A stretch of DNA of 64,000 nucleotides, taken from Deltaproteobacteria bacterium. GTDB taxonomy: Bacteria; Desulfobacterota; Binatia; UBA1149; JAJCZL01. Made by a program: the position numbers and the translations under genes. Shown one piece after another: positions 50,680 to 61,832 of this stretch. The notes below the pieces were generated by a model that saw only the letters and a list, made by a program, of their open reading frames with translations, was not told the origin of the DNA and searched no databases. The DNA lies in the NCBI GenBank assembly GCA_029262415.1, contig JAJCZL010000001.1, positions 53,368 to 117,367 of the forward strand, given 5' to 3'. Numbering within the stretch: the stretch's first letter is position 1; each line of letters starts with the position of its first letter.

Positions 50680-50893
50680 AACGGTCGTCCTCCTATCGTT
50701 GCACCTGATCAGTGTTAGCAGTCGACGACGGTGTTCGGAAACGTGACGGTACCGCGGACCTTAATCGTCCGCCCGGTCATCTCCCCACGCTGGCGTGTCC
50801 CAATTCCGCACGAAGTGGGACACTAAAACTCACTCGCACGCGTGCCACTAGACACTACGAGCGCGAAGGCCTGGCGCCGCTAGTACCTACATT

Positions 50894-50939
50894 ATAAGTG
50901 CCTCCGGCATGACTCGAACATGCTACCTACGGATTAGGA
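50894..50939 (-). repeat. Displaced 3' half of tRNA-Arg(CCT) (att direct repeat)
   Basis: 45 of 46 nt identical to 61754-61799, running from the anticodon loop to just past the tRNA 3' end. Confidence 0.93.
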
Positions 50940-50960: not shown

Positions 50961-53525
50961 TCAGTCTTTGCAGGCGGTTTTCTTCGTCGTTGCCTTGCAG
51001 GGGACGCCGCGGGCGGTCAGGCAGTCATCCACGGCCGGATCGGCGCCGAACAACAAAGAGAACGAAAGCTCGCTTTGCAATAGGGCTCCGGTCACCTCGG
51101 TTCCTTTCATCGTGACGCGATACTTAGCGACGCCCTTGGACGGCACCTCGATTACCTTGACCTGGACGATGCCGTTGGCCGACGGAATCAACCCGGCCGA
51201 GTCGCGGAACCGGTACTTGCCGGCCGTTGCCGAGCTTTTGTCATCGAAGTCGGACGCGGCGATGGCGGCGGTATAGATGGTTTGCCCCGCTGCATCGCGC
51301 AGATCGACCAAGAGCCCCGTCACCGTCGGTGCCGAGCTGAAATCGGAGAGCGGCAGTTCTCCCTTGGCCTTGAGCCGGTCGTTGGCTGCTCCGTCCTTGA
51401 ACTTGACCGTGATCTTATTGCGCGAAGCCGCGCGTACGCCGTTGCTCTGGCATACACCGGCGCTACAGGTACCCGCCGGCGTGCAAAGGTCGCCGTCATT
51501 GCAAGTCGTGGCGCTCAAGTTCGCGTATACGCATCCGGTCGTGGCATTGCAGATGTCGTCGGTGCAGTCGTTGCCGTCGTCGCAGGCGGCGTCCGAGGGA
51601 GTGTGCTGGCAGACGTTACCGGGTCCGCAGGTGTCGACCGTGCAGGCGATGCCCTCCTCACAGGAAGCCAGATGTTCGCATGTGTGCGCGACGTTGTCGC
51701 AGGTATCGACAGTGCAGTCGTCGCCGTCGTCGCACAACGATACGCCGGGAAAGCCCGGAGTCCCGGCAACGCAGCCTTCGTCCTGGCATTGGCCGCTACA
51801 GAAGTCGCCGTCGGCCGTGTTGCCGTCATCGCAGCTCTCGTCCTGGTCGATCTCGGAGTTTCCGCACACCGAGCAGCCGCCGAGAGCCGGGTCGAGAACG
51901 AGCGAAACCGATGGAGCGACGGTTCCGGCGAGTATCGGCGGCTTATCGGCATCGCGGTATCTTATGTTGTTTTGGCCTTGCCAATAATCCGTCGATGTCC
52001 CGGCGATAAGCTGGGAACCTGCGTCCATGATCATGCTTTCGCGTATGACCAGGTCGTTGTCGCCGGCAGTTTCTTGCGGCGAGCCGTTCGCGTTGTCGAT
52101 TCGCCCACCGTCGAGCATCCTCAATCGGCACACATCGATTTCCGTGAAGCCGCCGTTGATGTCGGCGCCGTTTAGAATCTTGCCTCCGATGGTCACGTCA
52201 TTGCCGACCCGCAGATCCAGCATGCCACCGTAGCCGCCGTAGGCGTATTCGCCGGCGCCCGAGAGGTTGCGACCACGCACGTCGACCGTACCGTCGATCC
52301 TCACCGGACCGTCGGAGCGAATGGTCAACTCGGCGCCTGTTTTCGAGTGTCCGTCGATGAGCCCGCTCGACCCCACGGCTAAGCCTCCACCGTAGGCCTC
52401 GAAGTTCATCAAGCCACCCTGTCCGCAACGGCCCAGCCCTTGGGCGACGACCTCTCCATCCAGCGTGATCGTATCGCCGGAGAAGTACACGTTGGCGCCC
52501 AGGGGCTCGCCGCTACAACCACCGAAGCCGCTGTTGCCGATGAACTTGGCGTGGTCTTCGAATATGACGTTGCCGTCGGCGTAAAAAGTGCCGTAGCCGC
52601 CGTAGCCTTGGTACAGGTAGCCGTAATAGAGCACCGAGTTGCCGTTGGCGCTCAGCCGCGTCTTGTCGCCGGGGATCGTCGAGCCGGCGATGAGCAGGTC
52701 GCCGCCGGCGGAAAAGCCGATCGAACCGCCGGAGGCGCCGGAGACGTTACCGCCATTGCTGGTGATGTCATCGCCGACGGTGATGTTGCCGCTGGCCTCC
52801 AGTTGAGCGGCACCACCGCGTCCCCCGGAGAGTTCCATGCTCGCCCCGGTGCTGATGTCTTGCGAAGCTATCATGGTGACGTCGCCCGCATACTCGGCGT
52901 AGGTATAGCCGCTCGATGGTCCGGCATTGCCTTCGATTTTCGCGTTCGAGATCACCGATCCCGTGAACGACTCGATCTTGAGCGTGCCGGCATTGGCGCC
53001 GCCGACCGAACCGTCGATCTTGATCGTGCCCGAAAGAGTGACGTCGCCGGAGGCGTCGAGGACAACGTCGCCGCCCGGGTTGCCGCTGGCGATCAGCTTG
53101 CCGTCAAAATTGATGACGCCGCCCCCGACGCTGCAGGTGCCGACTGCGAGAACGCTGCAGGCGACATCGTCGAGACAGGCAACAGTGGGATCCCCGGAAC
53201 AGCCGCGTTGGGCGGTTACCGAGAACGTTCCTGCGGTCTGCCCGCCCAAGCGGAGGTCCACCGCAGTATTGTTAGCGCCCACGTCGACGAGAAAATCACC
53301 GCAGAGGACGCTGCTTGTCCCTTTCAATTGCCCGGCGCCGGTTACTTGCACCGTGCGCAGGCCGAAATCGAGAACGCCGGGGGGTAGTACTTCGACCACG
53401 TCGCTGATCACGCAGGGATCGGCAGTGGGAGCGCAGACATCGTCGGGGCCGTTGGCGACGATGATCGCGCCGGCCGGAACGGCGAAAACCCAAGTCAGGA
53501 GAGTCGCGTACAGAGTCTTACTCAT
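50961..53525 (-). CDS. Large secreted Gly-rich protein with Cys-rich repeats (adhesin-like)
   Basis: Sec signal ending PAGA; Gly/Ser/Asn-rich region; CGNSEIDQDESCDDGNTADGDFCSGQC (Myxococcus cysteine-rich repeat-like); four CDDGxxCTxDxC-type repeats. Confidence 0.8.
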   Translation of the reverse strand: MSKTLYATLLTWVFAVPAGAIIVANGPDDVCAPTADPCVISDVVEVLPPGVLDFGLRTVQVTGAGQLKGTSSVLCGDFLVDVGANNTAVDLRLGGQTAGTFSVTAQRGCSGDPTVACLDDVACSVLAVGTCSVGGGVINFDGKLIASGNPGGDVVLDASGDVTLSGTIKIDGSVGGANAGTLKIESFTGSVISNAKIEGNAGPSSGYTYAEYAGDVTMIASQDISTGASMELSGGRGGAAQLEASGNITVGDDITSNGGNVSGASGGSIGFSAGGDLLIAGSTIPGDKTRLSANGNSVLYYGYLYQGYGGYGTFYADGNVIFEDHAKFIGNSGFGGCSGEPLGANVYFSGDTITLDGEVVAQGLGRCGQGGLMNFEAYGGGLAVGSSGLIDGHSKTGAELTIRSDGPVRIDGTVDVRGRNLSGAGEYAYGGYGGMLDLRVGNDVTIGGKILNGADINGGFTEIDVCRLRMLDGGRIDNANGSPQETAGDNDLVIRESMIMDAGSQLIAGTSTDYWQGQNNIRYRDADKPPILAGTVAPSVSLVLDPALGGCSVCGNSEIDQDESCDDGNTADGDFCSGQCQDEGCVAGTPGFPGVSLCDDGDDCTVDTCDNVAHTCEHLASCEEGIACTVDTCGPGNVCQHTPSDAACDDGNDCTDDICNATTGCVYANLSATTCNDGDLCTPAGTCSAGVCQSNGVRAASRNKITVKFKDGAANDRLKAKGELPLSDFSSAPTVTGLLVDLRDAAGQTIYTAAIAASDFDDKSSATAGKYRFRDSAGLIPSANGIVQVKVIEVPSKGVAKYRVTMKGTEVTGALLQSELSFSLLFGADPAVDDCLTARGVPCKATTKKTACKD

Positions 53526-54499: not shown

Positions 54500-55864
54500 T
54501 CAGTCGATATAGCCCAGCCCGCGCAGCTGGAATTCCAGGTTCTCGTGGTCATCCGCCGAAGCGCTCGACTCTTGACGAGCGCCCGATCGCGAGGGGTGTA
54601 GCTCCGACCAACTCGACAAGTCGCGGCTGAGTTTGTCTACGTGGCCGCCTTCGGTGATCGGGTGTAGCTCGCTCGGATCGTTGACCAAATCGAAGTAGGC
54701 GTGTTCGTCGCGCGTTATCCAGTGGATCAACTTGGCGTCGGCTGTCGTGACCGAGCGCAGATGGCCTTTGCCTTGGCCGCGGTCGGGACTGCGTTCTGTT
54801 TCGCTGACAACCAAGCCGACCGGTGCGGAACCACCGGCGATGAAGTGCGCGAGAGAGGCGCCGGGGAGTGGATGCTCGCGGATGCCGACCAGATCCAAGA
54901 TCGTCGAAGCGATCGTGACCGAGGCCGGAACGGTATCGGGAATGCGGCGCGCTTCGATTCCCGGCCCCACAAACAACAGAGGGACGTGCAGGACCTCTCG
55001 ATACAGTGTGTTTACGTGAAAGCAGCGACCGTGTTCGAGAAACTCCTCGCCGTGGTCGGAGAGAAATACGATCACCGTATGGTCTAGTAGGTTTCGCTCT
55101 TGCAGATATGCGAGCAGTTTGCCGACGTACCTGTCGCCGCGATGTATGGCGCCATCGTATTCGGCGATGTAGCGTCGAATGCTACTGCGCTGCTTGTCGC
55201 TCTGGCAAAAACTTCGCAACCCGCGTTTCGGCGGGGACTCGGGCAGATCGATGGCTGCGCGATCTAAGGCATCGGTGAGATAGGGCGTATGGGCATCGTA
55301 ACCGTGCGAGAACAGGAAGAACGGCTCCTCCATATCCTGTTCGAACCAGTATTTGGTAGCTTCGAGATTGTCGCGGAAGTACTTGCCGTTGGTACGGTAG
55401 GTGTCAAAGCCGTTGTCGAAGCCGAAGGCCGCATCGAGATTCCCACCGCCTGTGAATGCCGCCGTCACATAGCCTTTGCCTGACAAGACCCCTGCCAAAG
55501 TCGGTATGGTATCGGACAGTCGAGCACGGTCGCGCAGCGCTTTGTAGCCGTGCTCGGCCGGATAGAGGCCCGTAAACATCGACATATGCGCCGGGCGCGT
55601 CCAGGAAGACTGGCTGATCGCATTTTCGAACAGGGCCGCAGCGGCTGACAGTCGATCGATGTTGGGGGTGACATCGCGAGCTTCGTAGCCGTAGGCACCC
55701 ATGTGATCTGCGCGCAACGTGTCCATCGAAATCAGCACTACGTTGCAGCCCGGGCAGGCGGGGACGGGGGGCTCGGGCGCTCGACTACAGTCGGCGGCCA
55801 AGGCCACGGCGCCCGCCAGCGCTAGGCTGGTTAGCCACGTATGTCGGTTCGCAGGATCACGCAC
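54500..55864 (-). CDS. Sulfatase-like hydrolase (alkaline phosphatase superfamily)
   Basis: SMDTLRADH, WTRPAHMSMFTG, HGYDAHTPY, SDHGEEFLEHG; N-terminal signal. Confidence 0.88.
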   Translation of the reverse strand: MRDPANRHTWLTSLALAGAVALAADCSRAPEPPVPACPGCNVVLISMDTLRADHMGAYGYEARDVTPNIDRLSAAAALFENAISQSSWTRPAHMSMFTGLYPAEHGYKALRDRARLSDTIPTLAGVLSGKGYVTAAFTGGGNLDAAFGFDNGFDTYRTNGKYFRDNLEATKYWFEQDMEEPFFLFSHGYDAHTPYLTDALDRAAIDLPESPPKRGLRSFCQSDKQRSSIRRYIAEYDGAIHRGDRYVGKLLAYLQERNLLDHTVIVFLSDHGEEFLEHGRCFHVNTLYREVLHVPLLFVGPGIEARRIPDTVPASVTIASTILDLVGIREHPLPGASLAHFIAGGSAPVGLVVSETERSPDRGQGKGHLRSVTTADAKLIHWITRDEHAYFDLVNDPSELHPITEGGHVDKLSRDLSSWSELHPSRSGARQESSASADDHENLEFQLRGLGYID

Positions 55865-56022: not shown

Positions 56023-57552
56023 ATGCCCATCTTACCGAGGCTGCCGCAACGTGTGCTCGCCGGGCGAGGCGGTTGTATATCCGCTAGGCGCCTGGTCGAG
56101 TATCACCTGTTCGAACGGCTCGGCCGCACAATTCTCCTGAACGTCGAGACCATGCTGTTTTACGAGGCCACGCTACTGGTGCGTGAACTCGTCGAGCAGC
56201 TGGCCACCGAAGCGGAAGTCGATCCGATCTACGCCATGGGCCGGAGATATCCGCGCGCCGAGGTCGAGCAAGCGTTGGCCTATCTCGAGCGGGAAGGATT
56301 CCTGCGATCACCGGACGAAGCCGACCATCGCCCGGCTCCACCACTAAGGAAGCGGCGCGGTATCCGCCACCTGGAATTGATGGTCACGCATGGCTGTAAC
56401 ATGGGTTGCCGCTACTGTTACGGTGCTTACGGCGAGGCCGGGTGGAGCGATGCCCCGCACCTGTACGGATCGCAGAGCAAGGGCATGTCGCTTGAGACGG
56501 CGCTTCGGGGAGTCGATTTCCTGTTTCGCGAATCCGGCACGAACCGCGACTTAAGCCTGATTTTCTTCGGCGGCGAGCCGTTGCTCGAACTGAATCTGAT
56601 ACGCCGGATCGTCCCCTATGTCCGTCAACGCGAAGCAGAGACCGGCAAAACAGTTAGCTTGTCCCTGTCTACTAACGGAACGTTGCTCAGCGAGAAGGTC
56701 GTCGAGTTCCTCGTCGCCAATCGCATCGGCTGCCAGGTTTCGATCGACGGCGGAAAGGAAGTCCAGGATCGCAACCGACCGTTGCGCGGCGGCATGGCCT
56801 CCTACGATCGAATGCTTCCCGGCGTTCAACGGCTGATCGAGGCGCGACCGGGACGGGTTCGCGCGCGTGCGACGGTTGCTCACGACGAAGTGCAGGTAGT
56901 CGAGATAGTCGAGCATCTGCTCGGCCTCGGCTTTGGCTCGGTCCATGCCGAACCCGCTGTGGGTGGTCCTGAGGGCATGGCCGTGAGCGAAAGCGACGTC
57001 AGGGCAATCATGTGTCAAAACGAGAAGCTAGCCGGCAACTTGGTCGAGAGCGTGCGCGCGGACCGGCGATTAGACTACGCCAACCTAGTCCGCTTTGTTC
57101 GCCAGACCCGTGTTGTGCGTGAGCGCCTGGCTTACTATTGCGGTGCGGCCCGGACCTACCTGGCGCTATCGCAGGACGGGGCGTTCTATCCCTGCCACCG
57201 TTTCGTCGGTATGGACGACTACCGCATGGGCGATCTCGAAAATGGTCTCGATCTTCGCCTGCAAGACAGGATTCTGGCGCTTACGGTCGATGCGCGTGCC
57301 ACATGTAAGGATTGCTGGGCCCGGTACTTTTGTGGTGGTGGTTGCTGGAAGCACGCCGTCGACAACAGCGGCGGTCTCGAGCGGCCCGAAGAGGAGGTGA
57401 GTTGCCGGATCATCCGCCACACGATCGAGTGCGCGATGGCAATCAACACCGAGCTGCGCCTGATCGATGCCGAGGTCCTCGGTGACGGCACCGACCCGGC
57501 CGCTGTCGACCGCTACGGTCGGGCGCGCCCGGAGGTAAAGGCCGGTGCGTAG
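56023..57552 (+). CDS. Radical SAM/SPASM maturase with an N-terminal RRE (PqqD-like) domain; PapB/CteB/QhpD-like
   Basis: CNMGCRYC at 56395-56418, FFGGEPLL, STNG, SIDG; SPASM YCGA...YPCHRF...CKDCWARYFCGGGC...C; N-terminal YHLFE...LLNVE...EQALAYLEREGFL RRE-like segment. Confidence 0.93.
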   Translation: MPILPRLPQRVLAGRGGCISARRLVEYHLFERLGRTILLNVETMLFYEATLLVRELVEQLATEAEVDPIYAMGRRYPRAEVEQALAYLEREGFLRSPDEADHRPAPPLRKRRGIRHLELMVTHGCNMGCRYCYGAYGEAGWSDAPHLYGSQSKGMSLETALRGVDFLFRESGTNRDLSLIFFGGEPLLELNLIRRIVPYVRQREAETGKTVSLSLSTNGTLLSEKVVEFLVANRIGCQVSIDGGKEVQDRNRPLRGGMASYDRMLPGVQRLIEARPGRVRARATVAHDEVQVVEIVEHLLGLGFGSVHAEPAVGGPEGMAVSESDVRAIMCQNEKLAGNLVESVRADRRLDYANLVRFVRQTRVVRERLAYYCGAARTYLALSQDGAFYPCHRFVGMDDYRMGDLENGLDLRLQDRILALTVDARATCKDCWARYFCGGGCWKHAVDNSGGLERPEEEVSCRIIRHTIECAMAINTELRLIDAEVLGDGTDPAAVDRYGRARPEVKAGA

Positions 57553-58597
57553 ACGAAGGTTCTTGAGTTGGTTGCTGCGCCTTACCGGCGGCTGTTTCAC
57601 GGTTGCTGCGGGGATTGGCGCGGCGCCGTTGGCGCGAATCAACACCGTGTTGCTCGGTGAGGCCTGGGCGCAAGAGCCGTGCACCGAGGACATGTGTGCG
57701 ACGCGCGATGCGTGCGCGCTAGGAGACACGATCGGGCATACATGTGAGCTGCGCGACATCTGTGACACGGACGAATCGGGAGACTGCGCTGGAGATGTCT
57801 GTAGCAGCGATCGGTCGGAGGACTGCCGCGGCGATTCCTGCCAGTCCGACAACTCCGGTTCTTGTAACAGCGACAACTGCGATAGCGATTCGTCGGGGAG
57901 CTGCCGCAGTGATCAGTGCACGGATGATTCCTCGGGAGACTGTACCAGTGATCAGTGCGATACGGATAGTGTTGATTGTATCGGGGACGCGTGCACCACC
58001 GACGAGATCTGCCCGAGCGAGGTTTGCGGCGATGACGTTCCCGCTTGCGTTTCCGATTCTTGTTCGACGGATGCCTCAGGAAGCTGCGTCAGCGACGACT
58101 GCTCGGCGGATACCTCGGGCGCGTGCGCTAGCGACTCTTGCACGAACGATAGCTCGGGCAGTTGCCGCGGCGACAGTTGTCAAAGCGACGATTCCGGAAG
58201 TTGCCGGAACGATGCATGCACGACGCAGGACAGCTCGGTTTCCTGCAGATCCGACGCTTGCGACATCGATGGTGCGGGGTCGTGTGTCGCCGACGGCTGT
58301 GCCACGGATGGCGCAGGTGCCTGCACAGCCGACCGCTGCCAGGCCGACGGGTCGGGAGACTGTGCATCGCAGGACATCTGTGTAGTGGACGCATCATCGC
58401 TGTGCGGAAGTGACCTGTGCCGCGACGACCGCAGTCCGTCTGAGTGTACGGCAAAGGATACCTGCGCACTCGACTTGGCCGAGAACAGGCATTCGGTACG
58501 CCGGCACCTGGCGCGAAAGGATATTGACCGGGCGACAAAGTGGCTCTACGGGCTGTCGGCGACAGTCTTTTGGCTCGGAGGAAGTTGGTCGGGATAA
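57545..58597 (+). CDS. Twin-arginine-signal Cys/Asp repeat protein A (putative radical SAM substrate)
   Basis: RRRRFL, AWA-QEPC cleavage site; 41 Cys in residues 46-310, each followed by D/E at +3 or +4; hydrophobic C-terminus; GTG overlaps the radical SAM stop. Confidence 0.85.
   Translation: MRRRRFLSWLLRLTGGCFTVAAGIGAAPLARINTVLLGEAWAQEPCTEDMCATRDACALGDTIGHTCELRDICDTDESGDCAGDVCSSDRSEDCRGDSCQSDNSGSCNSDNCDSDSSGSCRSDQCTDDSSGDCTSDQCDTDSVDCIGDACTTDEICPSEVCGDDVPACVSDSCSTDASGSCVSDDCSADTSGACASDSCTNDSSGSCRGDSCQSDDSGSCRNDACTTQDSSVSCRSDACDIDGAGSCVADGCATDGAGACTADRCQADGSGDCASQDICVVDASSLCGSDLCRDDRSPSECTAKDTCALDLAENRHSVRRHLARKDIDRATKWLYGLSATVFWLGGSWSG
57680..58474 (+). repeat. About 13-aa tandem repeat C-x2-D-x-C-x2-D-x-S-G-x (protein A)
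   Basis: For example CQSDNSGSCNSDNCDSDSSGSCRSDQCTDDSSGD. Confidence 0.9.
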
Positions 58598-58651
58598 AAT
58601 GGAGCGTTAAAGGCACGAGGATCGGCGCCGGATTTATGACGGAGTAGGCCA

Positions 58652-60664
58652 ATGCTCAGAAGAAAGTTCCTCAGATGGATCGTCGGGTTCGGCGGCGGTT
58701 ACTTCACGGTTGCAGCAGGGACCGGCGTTGCGCCATTGTTGCGAATCAACACGGCGTTACTTACCGAGGCCCGCGCGCAAGAGCCCTGCGGCCAGGATAC
58801 CTGCACGATCTCGGACGTGTGCCAAGCTGACAGCGTCGGTCATACCTGCCAGGTACGCGACGTATGCGACGAGGACGGCTCAGGTGACTGCACCAACGAC
58901 GAGTGCACCCAAGATGCATCGCTCGACTGCAGCGGCGACCGCTGCATAAGCGACGCTTCGGGTTCTTGCACGAACGACGGCGGTCCCGCCTGCACCGACG
59001 ACCAGAGCTGCCCGGCTGACGAAGTGGGTTGCCGCGATGATTACTCGGGCGTCTGCGGTTCGGACAGCTCGGGTACTTGTACGAACGACTCCTGCGGCTC
59101 GGACAGTTCGAAAGAGTGTCAGAGTGACATCTGCGCCGCCGACTCATCGGGCAGTGGAGATACGGATTTCTGCGTTGCCGATAGCTCCGGTGGGTGCCAA
59201 AACGACGACTGCGTTTCCGACAAATCTGGTGATTGTGGGAACGACCTGTGCCTCAGCGATAAATCGGGCCAATGCACCGGCGATCGTTGCCGCAGCGACA
59301 GTTCAGGGGACTGCACGAACGACGGCGGTCCGGCATGCATCGAGGATCAGAGCTGCCCGGCCGACGAAGTTGGCTGCCGCGATGATTACTCGGGCGTCTG
59401 CAGTTCGGACAGCTCAGGGTCTTGCACCAACGACTCCTGCGGCTCGGACAGCTCGAAAGGCTGTCAGAGTGACATCTGTCTCGCCGACTCGTCGGGCGAC
59501 GGTAGTACCGATTTTTGCATTGCTGACAGTTCCGGGCAGTGCGACGTAGATAGCTGCATTTCAGATAGATCGGGTTCTGGGAACCACGACGACTGCCTTT
59601 CAGATAGTTCCGGAGCCTGCACGGAGGACCTCTGCAGATCAGACAGCTCCGGCGACTGTACCGGCGACCGCTGCCGCTTGGACTCCTCGGGAATCTGCAC
59701 TGAACACGACGTGTGCGTACGGGATGCGTCGTTTCCTTGCGCGAGCGACCTGTGTAGGGACGACCGCAGCCCGGCCGACTGTGCAGCCAAGGACACGTGC
59801 GCGCTCGACTTGGCAGGCAACGGCCGATCGACGGGCCGGCGCCTCGCCCGCGCAGGGCTCAGTCGAACGTTGCACTGGTTATACGGAATTTCCTCGCTCG
59901 CGCTCGCTGTCGCGCTCGGGCACGGCGTCGCGCGCGCTGCCGTCGTGATCGACGCTACCGATGCCGTCTTCTTCCCGGATGTGACCTACGCGACTGGACA
60001 AACGGTTAGCGTGGGCGCACCGGTAGGGCCGTTTCTGCGCGACTGTGACGACGACGGCAGCCTCGAGGCCGATACCAACGGCGACGGCGCTTGCAGCGGT
60101 GATCCTGAGGTGGATGACTTCAATGGCGACGGCAGCCGTGAACTGCCGCCGGCTACGGCCTTGTCCGGAAACTACGAGTTCACCTGCTTTTTTATCCCCG
60201 ATGATGTCGCGATCATCGTAACCGGCCCGCTCAGCGTGACGGCATCGATGGAGGTCGCGGTGTTCGGTGTGCTGAGGCTTGCGTCGGGAGCCGATGTATC
60301 TTCGTCGGCGATGATCGATACGCGCACGAGTGCCTGGCTGTCCGAGGACGGCTCGCCGATCAACCTGACTACAGGGCTTGTCGGGACCATCGACGAGAGC
60401 GACAGCGGCTTCGACGGTAGAGAAGGTGTGCCGCCGATTTTGTACACGAGCCTTTGCGATACGAACGGGCTGTGCGGTGACGCCAACTCCGACGGTCGTA
60501 TCACCGCGACGGACGCCTTGGCGGTTCTCAAGAACGCCGTTGGTCTGGGCGTGTGTTCCGCTGCCGTTTGCGACGTGAATTCCTCGGGCGGCGTGACGGC
60601 GACCGACGCACTTCTGGTTCTCCAGAAAGCGGTGGGCGTGGCGGTGACCCTGGACTGTCCTTGA
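58652..60664 (+). CDS. Twin-arginine-signal Cys/Asp repeat protein B with a C-terminal dockerin-like domain
   Basis: LRRKFL, ARA-QEPC; 48 Cys in residues 46-386, each followed by D at +3 or +4; second RR-plus-hydrophobic segment; GDANSDGRITATDAL...DVNSSGGVTATDAL duplicated dockerin-like motif at 60473-60661. Confidence 0.87.
   Translation: MLRRKFLRWIVGFGGGYFTVAAGTGVAPLLRINTALLTEARAQEPCGQDTCTISDVCQADSVGHTCQVRDVCDEDGSGDCTNDECTQDASLDCSGDRCISDASGSCTNDGGPACTDDQSCPADEVGCRDDYSGVCGSDSSGTCTNDSCGSDSSKECQSDICAADSSGSGDTDFCVADSSGGCQNDDCVSDKSGDCGNDLCLSDKSGQCTGDRCRSDSSGDCTNDGGPACIEDQSCPADEVGCRDDYSGVCSSDSSGSCTNDSCGSDSSKGCQSDICLADSSGDGSTDFCIADSSGQCDVDSCISDRSGSGNHDDCLSDSSGACTEDLCRSDSSGDCTGDRCRLDSSGICTEHDVCVRDASFPCASDLCRDDRSPADCAAKDTCALDLAGNGRSTGRRLARAGLSRTLHWLYGISSLALAVALGHGVARAAVVIDATDAVFFPDVTYATGQTVSVGAPVGPFLRDCDDDGSLEADTNGDGACSGDPEVDDFNGDGSRELPPATALSGNYEFTCFFIPDDVAIIVTGPLSVTASMEVAVFGVLRLASGADVSSSAMIDTRTSAWLSEDGSPINLTTGLVGTIDESDSGFDGREGVPPILYTSLCDTNGLCGDANSDGRITATDALAVLKNAVGLGVCSAAVCDVNSSGGVTATDALLVLQKAVGVAVTLDCP
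58967..59656 (+). repeat. 345-bp (115-aa) internal tandem duplication in protein B
   Basis: CTNDGGPAC...CPADEVGCRDDYSGVC starts at 58967 and again at 59312; the register holds to 59656. Confidence 0.9.
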
Positions 60665-60692: not shown

Positions 60693-61196
60693 ATGAATCT
60701 TGACATTCACGAACGCGACGTCGAACCAATACTCTGCCGTACCTGTGCGGCTTGCTGCAGGGTTACGCTATCGCTGCGCGATACGGTGTCGCGATACCGG
60801 TGTTTCCTCAGGCAGATAGGCTACGAAGTGCTGCCTCCACGCACGTCGACGAGTGCCGATTGTTGCGACAAGCGGCACGATGCACGCCTGGACATGGGGT
60901 ACTGCAAGTACCTTGAGATCGGCAATACGCCCGCGACAACCGCGTACCGCTGTCGCATTTACGAAAGCGAAGAGATGCCGCAGCTCTGTACCGACTACAA
61001 TTGTGTGAGCTGGGCCAAGGCGAACGATACCTACAACGAGAAAAACGCCACCCTGGTCAAGGCGCAGGAGGCTCTCGAGCGGCTACGCTCGAACGGCGCA
61101 GTAGGTACCGTAAGCAGTTCTGGAGGGCGCGAAGCCCTTGCTTGCCCGCTAAATCAAGTGGAGACTACGAAGGGGGCAGGCAAATGGATAGGATAG
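60693..61196 (+). CDS. YkgJ/CxxCxxCC-family Cys-cluster (Fe-S or Zn) protein
   Basis: CRTCAACC, DCC, YCKYL, CRIYE...PQLCTDYNC. Confidence 0.78.
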   Translation: MNLDIHERDVEPILCRTCAACCRVTLSLRDTVSRYRCFLRQIGYEVLPPRTSTSADCCDKRHDARLDMGYCKYLEIGNTPATTAYRCRIYESEEMPQLCTDYNCVSWAKANDTYNEKNATLVKAQEALERLRSNGAVGTVSSSGGREALACPLNQVETTKGAGKWIG

Positions 61197-61600
61197 AATG
61201 GAGTGACAGACTCAGCGTTGGCGTTAAACAGCTTGATGAACAACACATCCGTATCATCCGCATGATCAACCGCATGATCGATCACGTGAATAGCCAGATT
61301 GCTGTCGATGATTGGGATATTATCTCTGACACGCTCTTTGAGATGACGCAGTATTCTCAGGATCACTTCGATTGCGAAGAGGCACTCATGAACAGGTACG
61401 GATACCCAAAGGGCGATCACCAGGAGGAACTCCACATGGAGTTCCTGGAGACAACCGTTGAGCTTTCCCGAACTCTGGAATCCCCCACGAAACACTCGCT
61501 TGAAGAGTTACTTGCATATCTAGGGAATTGGTGGGTTGGGCACATCCTTGGAGAGGATATGCAATATAAGCTATTTTTCGCCGACCACGGCGTGACATAG
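61184..61600 (+). CDS. Bacteriohemerythrin
   Basis: EWSDRLSVGVKQLDEQH, HFDCEEALM, GYP, HILGED; ATG 61184 overlaps the upstream stop. Confidence 0.92.
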   Translation: MDRIEWSDRLSVGVKQLDEQHIRIIRMINRMIDHVNSQIAVDDWDIISDTLFEMTQYSQDHFDCEEALMNRYGYPKGDHQEELHMEFLETTVELSRTLESPTKHSLEELLAYLGNWWVGHILGEDMQYKLFFADHGVT

Positions 61601-61758
61601 TAGAACAAAGCGCAACCTCGAACCCGTCACCCGAATTGGGACACGCGACGACGCGGCTTCTCGGGCAGCGCCGGATCTACCAACTCGCGCACCTCGGCCA
61701 ACCGCCTTTGCGAACATTAAGGTAGCGATAGAGACTTATGCCGTAACTACCTGATAAG

Positions 61759-61832
<74 letters not shown>

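Follow-up and report, generated by a model that had tools for sequence, protein, structure and literature searches.

Why should every cysteine in the repeats of two long proteins be followed, three or four residues later, by an acid? The question is raised by a 64,000-nucleotide stretch of contig JAJCZL010000001.1 (the window) in the Deltaproteobacteria bacterium assembly GCA_029262415.1. A gene for a radical S-adenosylmethionine (SAM) enzyme with a SPASM domain lies there directly upstream of two tandem genes, whose products we call proteins A and B; the enzyme stop codon is overlapped by 8 nt by the start of A. We judge it probable that A and B are whole-protein substrates of this enzyme, which would staple Cys to Asp through thioether (ranthionine) bonds. 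From comparison of sequences and loci, we infer this chemistry, the action of the enzyme on A and B, an S–C(beta) product, in-line pairing of residue i with i+3 or i+4, and export by the twin-arginine (Tat) pathway.

The translation of A contains 42 cysteine residues: Cys17 in an N-terminal signal-like segment, and 41 in the repeats (Cys46 to Cys307). All 41 have an acidic residue at +3 or +4, as 34 CX2D, one CX2E and six CX3D motifs. The rule likewise holds for 48 of 48 repeat cysteines in B (Cys46 to Cys383; 44 CX2D and four CX3D). The C-terminal domains of B add eight cysteines, two of them in CX2D by happenstance. The repeats extend from nucleotide 57680, the first repeat Cys codon of A, to nucleotide 59809, in the codon of the Asp that partners B's last repeat Cys. 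An earlier note on this DNA had counted these motifs by hand, and translation reproduces both counts exactly. The chance expectation was estimated from 20,000 composition-preserving shuffles of each repeat region. The mean fraction of cysteines obeying the rule was 0.40 (A) and 0.37 (B) and the maxima were 0.69 and 0.64, against an observed value of 1.00. The Cys–acid pairing is thus confirmed and is strongly non-random. The Cys-to-acid distance is 3 (85%) or 4 (15%), whereas the Cys-to-Cys distance, mostly 5, 6, 8, 9 or 13, is the more variable of the two, as the earlier note had read it.

Because the units multiplied by duplication, the 89 sites cannot be counted as independent. One such event is preserved in B as an internal tandem duplication with a 345-nt unit (58858–59157 versus 59203–59502, 78% nucleotide identity). 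Between the copies, 22 of the 99 aligned residues differ and none of the 28 Cys or paired-acid positions does, with synonymous changes in 5 of these 28 codons (Fisher p = 2e-4). The absence of replacements at these positions, despite the synonymous changes and the 22 replacements elsewhere, therefore reflects purifying selection on the Cys and acid positions of B.

Relatives of A and B were found by a word-indexed search (19 proteins, 37–55% identity), and more were added by scanning species-representative genomes with a profile of the enzyme. A profile search of 1.84 billion representatives gave 43 clusters at E ≤ 1e-30; the family is therefore real but rare. Those of the weaker matches that we inspected were unrelated low-complexity or CTDC-type proteins, and our literature searches found no description of the A/B repeat family. 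Among 32 distinct family proteins, an acid (D/E) at +3 or +4 is kept for 1190 of 1196 repeat cysteines (997 CX2D, 175 CX3D, 16 CX2E, 2 CX3E), and the remaining six are mostly found at the margins of the repeats. The earlier note had proposed that selection acts on the Cys–acid pair, and had named homologues that retain Cys and drop the i+3 Asp as evidence to the contrary. The family does not behave in this way, and together with the duplication in B it supports the proposal.

The 323 canonical units of the family have a 13-residue consensus, C1-x-x-D4-x-C6-x-[SA]8-D9-[SK]10-S11-G12-x13. C1, D4, C6 and D9 are invariant (100%), S11 is present in 94% and G12 in 77% of units, and unit positions 2, 3, 5, 7 and 13 vary freely. 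The statement that everything outside the pair varies freely holds for these five positions and fails for Ser11 and Gly12. After a CX3D motif the next Cys is displaced by one residue (spacing 6 or 9, not 5 or 8).

On sequence grounds, the enzyme belongs to the ranthisynthase group (PapB/CteB/QhpD). Its highest-scoring NCBIfam models are the nif11-type maturase (295 bits), the SCIFF thioether maturase (271), PapB (269) and QhpD (265). The features of the group that we find in it are a CX3CX2C cluster motif with a SPASM domain, an RRE and a six-residue active-site lining profile. The cluster motif is CNMGCRYC (C125/C129/C132), and the SPASM domain (TIGR04085, E 2.3e-16) contains C373, C391, C428, C431, C437, C441, C461 and C470. 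All of these cysteines are invariant across six orthologues, as are His392 and Arg393. A profile of the six orthologues aligns with CteB (5WGG/5WHY) at E 1.7e-92, over enzyme residues 21–473 and CteB residue 4 to 450. Both this alignment and a single-sequence alignment begin at CteB residue 4–7 and so take in the N-terminal RRE. The enzyme is accordingly predicted to have an RRE domain, which may bind the leader of its substrate.

Six residues line the active site of CteB, namely F112, F152, T186, S210, H363 and Q364 (PMC10288494). We mapped these positions through the CteB alignment (chain numbers in the PDB are shifted by +3). The window enzyme and its orthologues, with Asp/Glu as the predicted acceptor, have the profile Y-F-S-S-H-R (Y133, F182, S216, S240, H392 and R393). 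QhpD from the Paracoccus plasmid, with Asp/Glu acceptors, has Y-F-T-S-H-R, which is also the profile of the nif11-type maturase, whose acceptor is not characterised. The Thr-acceptor enzymes ScfB and CteB have F-F-T-S-H-Q. The window enzyme therefore matches QhpD at five of six positions, with a conservative Ser/Thr difference at the other. Position 6 is Arg in the window enzyme and QhpD and Gln in CteB and ScfB, suggesting from these two enzyme classes that Arg393 may recognise the carboxylate. If Arg at this position tracks carboxylate acceptors, it could help to predict the acceptor type in uncharacterised enzymes.

The enzyme and the repeat proteins occur together. In the loci reached from the repeat-protein side, an orthologous enzyme (51–74% identical) lies directly upstream in seven of seven, and the two genes often overlap by 4–8 nt. 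The scan from the enzyme side gave 17 loci. In 15 of them, the informative ones, a CxxD-rich open reading frame (ORF) in the same orientation lies downstream: immediately after the enzyme in 14, and about 4 kb further on in L010. Of the remaining two, one is on a contig that ends 205 bp past the enzyme and the other, L024, has suffered a deletion. A single ORF in L024 (5667–6827) joins the first ~257 enzyme residues directly to a point midway in the conserved C-terminal domain (SRCLPVGPFLRDCDGDG). The C-terminal half of the enzyme (SPASM), the leader and all of the repeats were lost at once; either the cassette decayed or the assembly is chimeric at this locus. No other conserved neighbour is shared across the loci examined. 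The enzyme-side loci are spread over several phyla and come from Brocadiaceae, Thermodesulfovibrionales, Syntrophaceae, Desulfatiglandales, Syntrophobacter, Desulfobacteraceae, a Nitrospira metagenome-assembled genome, Acidobacteriota and a betaproteobacterium.

Protein-sized substrates of such enzymes have a precedent. In Methanococcus voltae, the 28.8-kDa repeat protein CrpA receives ranthionine links from CrpC at motifs that include CAVD and PCAGD, each of which loses 2 Da and one alkylatable thiol, with Cys ahead of the acceptor (PMC13692751). There, too, a SPASM radical SAM enzyme with an RRE adjoins protein-sized Cys-rich repeat proteins with C-x-x-D/Q motifs, and one leader of about 45 residues is common to the N termini of the paralogous substrates, as A and B share theirs. 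The systems differ in several respects. The window enzyme scores 68.9 bits against a cut-off of 525 for TIGR04463 and hence belongs to another enzyme family. The CrpA repeat has 17 residues in 10 copies, compared with 13 residues and 41–56 motifs here. Crp is archaeal and the A/B family bacterial, and not all Crp acceptors are acidic. A Tat-type leader, an internal signal-like segment, a surface domain and a sorting tag are not reported for Crp.

PapB joins Cys to Asp or Glu in six CX3D/E motifs and tolerates CXnD for n = 0–6, a range that contains the n = 2 of most A/B motifs (PMC9413430). The PapA/PapB system (freyrasin, Paenibacillus polymyxa) resembles the one proposed here in that an RRE-containing radical SAM-SPASM enzyme makes in-line S–C(beta) rings at repeated Cys-Xn-Asp/Glu motifs. 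However, PapA is a short peptide with six CX3D motifs, whereas A and B have 350–670 residues and 41–48 motifs, 85% of them CX2D; the window enzyme scores 268.6 bits against a PapB (NF047865) cut-off of 340; and here the leader is Tat-like, with no export protease/transporter gene nearby. In QhpC, the gamma subunit of quinohemoprotein amine dehydrogenase, which ends in the periplasm, QhpD forms three bridges, two from Cys to Asp and one from Cys to Glu. QhpD and the window enzyme agree at five of six lining positions, with Tyr at position 1 and Arg at position 6 among the matches, but the two are only about 28% identical and the score is 264.8 bits against a cut-off of 453 (TIGR03906). QhpC itself is an enzyme subunit of 80–110 residues with three bridges at spacings of 6–9. 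No genes for QHNDH dehydrogenase subunits are found near the window enzyme, when compared with the Paracoccus locus. CteB, of the SCIFF (ScfA/ScfB) type, is the closest solved structure and matches over the full length including RRE and SPASM. Unlike the enzyme proposed here, it links Cys to the C(gamma) of Thr in a peptide of about 50 residues, with Phe and Gln at lining positions 1 and 6 in place of Tyr and Arg. The A/B cassette is best read as a variation on PapB/QhpD/CrpC-type stapling and not as a new kind of system. The donor/acceptor thioether interpretation offered in the earlier note is thus supported by the enzyme class, the QhpD-like lining residues, the synteny and the CrpA/PapB precedent.

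In the mechanism that we propose, the RRE domain of the enzyme would grip the conserved leader of about 42 residues in A and B while the catalytic domain moves along the 13-residue units. In each Cys-X2/3-Asp(Glu) motif, a hydrogen would be abstracted from the side-chain methylene of the acidic residue, and this carbon would be bonded to the Cys sulfur. The product would be a small, non-reducible thioether ring, with about 41 such rings in A and about 48 in B. The stapled, highly acidic chain would be exported after modification by means of its Tat-like leader, which signal peptidase would remove. In B-type members, the repeats would be followed by a surface module, with a conserved beta domain and dockerin, or IPTL-CTERM in relatives.

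Several observations weigh against this reading, and we consider them here with the alternatives that they favour. The enzyme falls below every NCBIfam equivalog cut-off, and its reaction could differ. A rule that looks upstream of Cys for an acid (D/E at −2 or −5) holds for 94% of the cysteines of the family, compared with 99.5% for +3/+4, and the distance from Asp to the next Cys (2 or 5) is nearly as regular as that from Cys to Asp. The enzyme might then modify A and B by another chemistry or in another register: as sactionines, at the alpha-carbon; as nested or cross-unit links (C1–D9 with C6–D4, or Asp(i)–Cys(i+2)); or at a subset of the motifs. PapB can form nested as well as in-line links, CrpC modified some motifs only and used some non-acidic acceptors, and some sactisynthases are similar to ranthisynthases in sequence and in active-site profile (PMC10288494). 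On the other hand, the upstream rule leaves 6% of the cysteines unpartnered, compared with 0.5% for +3/+4. In every characterised relative (CrpA, PapA and QhpC) Cys stands ahead of the acceptor as in the A/B motifs, which we count toward the +3/+4 register, and the QhpD-like lining profile argues against another chemistry. The downstream register, which leaves almost every Cys partnered, is favoured by the sequences but not proven. We consider a different chemistry or register unlikely.

Also difficult for stapling as the whole explanation are about 20 units that have lost one Cys, usually to Gly (SGxGxxDxC), and retained both the neighbouring Cys and the Asp. In the family, an acid without Cys occurs, while Cys without an acid is, apart from the six exceptions, essentially never seen. 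Since conservation of Ser11 and Gly12 comes close to that of the pair and the Asp is kept without Cys, part of the conservation does not reflect donor/acceptor pairing. The Asp probably has a role beyond that of acceptor, for example in cation binding or in a turn. Such a role would suit a disulfide-bonded and/or Ca2+-binding structural repeat of the kind found in thrombospondin type-3, Dictyostelium CTDC and myxococcal Cys-rich acidic proteins, with some other or minor part for the enzyme. These repeats, like those of A and B, are Cys- and Asp-rich, and they are extracellular. The A/B repeats are very acidic, and the conserved D-[SK]-S-G might be a cation-binding turn. CxxDxC also occurs in CTDC-type repeats, and the A/B repeat profile weakly picks up one such protein; furthermore, a protein with TIGR02232/CTDC repeats is encoded in the same genomic island as A and B.

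Against this, no radical SAM enzyme is associated with the CTDC, TIGR02232 and thrombospondin type-3 repeats, and control repeats obey the Cys–acid rule at only 35–50%: 7 of 20 cysteines in the 854-residue TIGR02232/CTDC neighbour, equal to its chance expectation, and 25 of 50 in a CTDC-type protein. In the A/B family, pairing with the enzyme is strict, and L024 lost both together. Disulfides in particular are poorly compatible with the number of repeat cysteines, which is odd in 18 and even in 14 of the 32 proteins, with the tolerance of single-Cys units and with a leader of Tat rather than Sec type, which implies that the protein matures and folds in the reducing cytoplasm and fits poorly with periplasmic disulfide formation. 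We regard this explanation as distinctly improbable. The thrombospondin type-3-like alternative mentioned in the earlier note found no support. Membership of A and B in the thrombospondin type-3, CTDC or TIGR02232 families was rejected, as no model matches them; neither A nor the repeat part of B matches any Pfam family at E ≤ 10 or any NCBIfam family at E ≤ 0.01.

The two Cys and two Asp residues of each unit are four potential metal ligands. The CxxDxCxxD units could therefore be metal sites, for example for Fe, Zn, Cu or Fe-S, that are filled in the cytoplasm before the folded protein leaves by Tat, with the enzyme aiding the loading or making a few anchoring modifications. Proteins already loaded with a cofactor are the typical cargo of Tat. 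The CrpA operon is induced on pyrite, and metal binding is suspected there. In an AlphaFold2 model of B (25-sequence alignment), the repeats have local confidence (pLDDT) scores of 30–40 and no secondary structure, so the model gives no Cys-Asp geometry. The unmodified repeats are thus predicted to lack an autonomous fold, which suits metal sites but is compatible with all of the readings. However, a part in metal insertion is not known for an RRE-bearing, CteB-like maturase whose active site resembles that of QhpD, and single-Cys units are tolerated. As the sole explanation, metal sites appear very improbable to us. A metal or Ca role may nevertheless coexist with stapling, since a beta-linked Asp would keep its carboxylate and could bind cations; hints of such a role come from the conservation of D-[SK]-S-G and from the retention of Asp in units without Cys.

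The remaining difficulty concerns topology. The leaders of A (RRRRFLSW...PLARINT...AWA) and B (RRKFLRW...ARA) have Tat-like features, with RRxFL, a weakly hydrophobic core, a basic residue and AxA. The maximum 12-residue hydropathy of the leader is 1.0–1.9 across the family. By these motifs the leader looks like a Tat signal, and Tat export is suggested on the same grounds. The leaders of A and B are identical at 31 of 46 positions (67%), and all family members conserve the leader. After the repeats, each of them also has a second signal-like segment, with RRxFA+, a core hydropathy of 2.0–3.0, above that of the leader, and usually an AxA thereafter. A and the proteins of the Brocadiaceae loci L008 and L021, which share its module-only architecture, terminate within this segment. 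B-type members continue past it into the conserved beta domain and a dockerin, IPTL-CTERM or other end, and a few members have a different, beta-helix-like passenger domain instead. Within one chain, at most one of two N-in/C-out signals can span the membrane, so the simple picture of a Tat-exported, surface-sorted protein cannot be reconciled with these sequences. If the second segment is a true export signal, the repeats would stay in the cytoplasm. At L002 (10823–11963), where the repeat protein has an IPTL-CTERM-type end, an exosortase-like gene and a gene associated with XrtH come next, and these fit surface sorting of the C-terminal part. No exosortase/XrtH-type gene is found next to B in the window; B ends in a dockerin.

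Taking these difficulties into account, we continue to favour thioether stapling and offer a broader proposal, which is tentative and on balance doubtful. A rare but widespread two-gene cassette may make an exported ladder of thioethers, in which essentially all of the approximately 40–55 CxxD motifs in an acidic module of about 300 residues are stapled by a single radical SAM enzyme. The Tat signal would double as the leader of a peptide made on the ribosome and modified afterwards (a RiPP), and the usual leader protease and transporter would give way to export and signal peptidase. Such a module would serve as a portable and non-reducible stand-in for disulfide-rich stalks, carried on varied surface domains (dockerin, IPTL-CTERM, beta-helix). 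The hosts of the cassette are mostly from lineages known as anaerobes (anammox, sulfate-reducing and syntrophic). A possible rationale in anaerobes is the provision of redox-inert cross-links where extracellular disulfides would be reduced.

Stapling is well known on short peptides and has only just been shown on a protein, the archaeal CrpA (2026). If our reading is true, it would extend stapling to several bacterial phyla, to about 40–55 motifs per chain and to exported, surface-sorted proteins with a Tat-like leader. The 13-residue unit with its two invariant CxxD motifs would be a very clean test substrate.

The features of the enzyme and of proteins A and B are collected in Table 1. The beta-rich domain of B is modelled at pLDDT > 90 (residues ~430–590), and a Foldseek search of this domain against the PDB gave nothing below E = 3. 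The sequencing runs that contain the window stretch are biofilm metagenome DNA runs only, with no RNA runs among them.

Table 1. Positions in the window of the radical SAM enzyme and of the parts of proteins A and B.
Feature	Position	Strand	Description
Radical SAM/SPASM enzyme	56023..57552	+	509 aa; RRE-like domain at residues ~20-110; Pfam Radical_SAM, NCBIfam SPASM
Protein A	57545..58597	+	350 aa; leader, repeats, short basic-plus-hydrophobic tail; GTG start, GGAGG 8 nt upstream
Leader of A	57545..57670	+	Residues 1-42; RRRRFLSW, weakly hydrophobic Gly/Ala-rich core, PLxRINT (PLARINT in A), AWA
Repeat region of A	57680..58474	+	41 Cys; net charge -46
C-terminal tail of A	58499..58594	+	Residues 319-350; RR-plus-hydrophobic
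Protein B	58652..60664	+	670 aa; leader, repeats, internal signal-like segment, conserved beta-rich domain, dockerin
Repeat region of B	58787..59809	+	48 Cys, each with Asp at +3/+4; net charge -52
Internal tandem duplication in B	58858..59502	+	345-nt unit
Internal signal-like segment of B	59837..59938	+	Residues 396-429; RRLAR, hydrophobic core, ARA
Beta-rich domain of B	59939..60451	+	Residues ~430-600; conserved in most family members; no known family
Dockerin type I domain of B	60476..60619	+	Residues 609-656; Pfam PF00404, E 2.5e-7

In the Desulfatiglandales locus L012 (7643–13424), two intact CxxD paralogues and two fragments lie behind one enzyme. The second paralogue has a beta-helix-like passenger after the internal signal-like segment, and passengers of the same type are found in L011 and P0015. 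In L007 (1–1135), the orthologous radical SAM gene is split across two frames, probably by an indel error of long-read assembly rather than as a pseudogene.

In the window, a 57-nt direct repeat, 93% identical between its copies, occurs at 50883–50939 and 61743–61799, 10,860 bp apart, and includes the 3' part of a tRNA-Arg(CCT) gene (61758–61832, minus strand). This arrangement resembles a genomic island that entered at the tRNA; between the two copies we saw no integrase. The copies enclose genes for an 854-residue Cys-rich protein and a 287-residue protein, a sulfatase-like gene, the radical SAM gene, A, B, and genes for a CxxCxxCC protein and a hemerythrin. The last two (60693–61600), in which the gene for the hemerythrin-domain protein overlaps that for the 167-residue CxxCxxCC protein, come after B in the same orientation and are not beside the cassette in the other loci examined.

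The sulfatase-like gene (54500–55864, minus strand), absent from all other loci examined, encodes a divergent sulfatase-family protein with SMDTLRAD in place of C/S-x-P-x-R. It probably uses Thr, judging from this motif, and not formylglycine, and would need no radical SAM maturase. A role of the window enzyme as a sulfatase maturase (TIGR03942) was rejected: it scores 90.5 bits against a cut-off of 349, and the adjacent gene lacks the formylglycine motif and is not conserved in the other loci. The 854-residue protein (50961–53525, minus strand) is of secreted type and carries TIGR02232/Dicty_CTDC Cys-rich acidic repeats (CDDGNDCTDDIC and similar).

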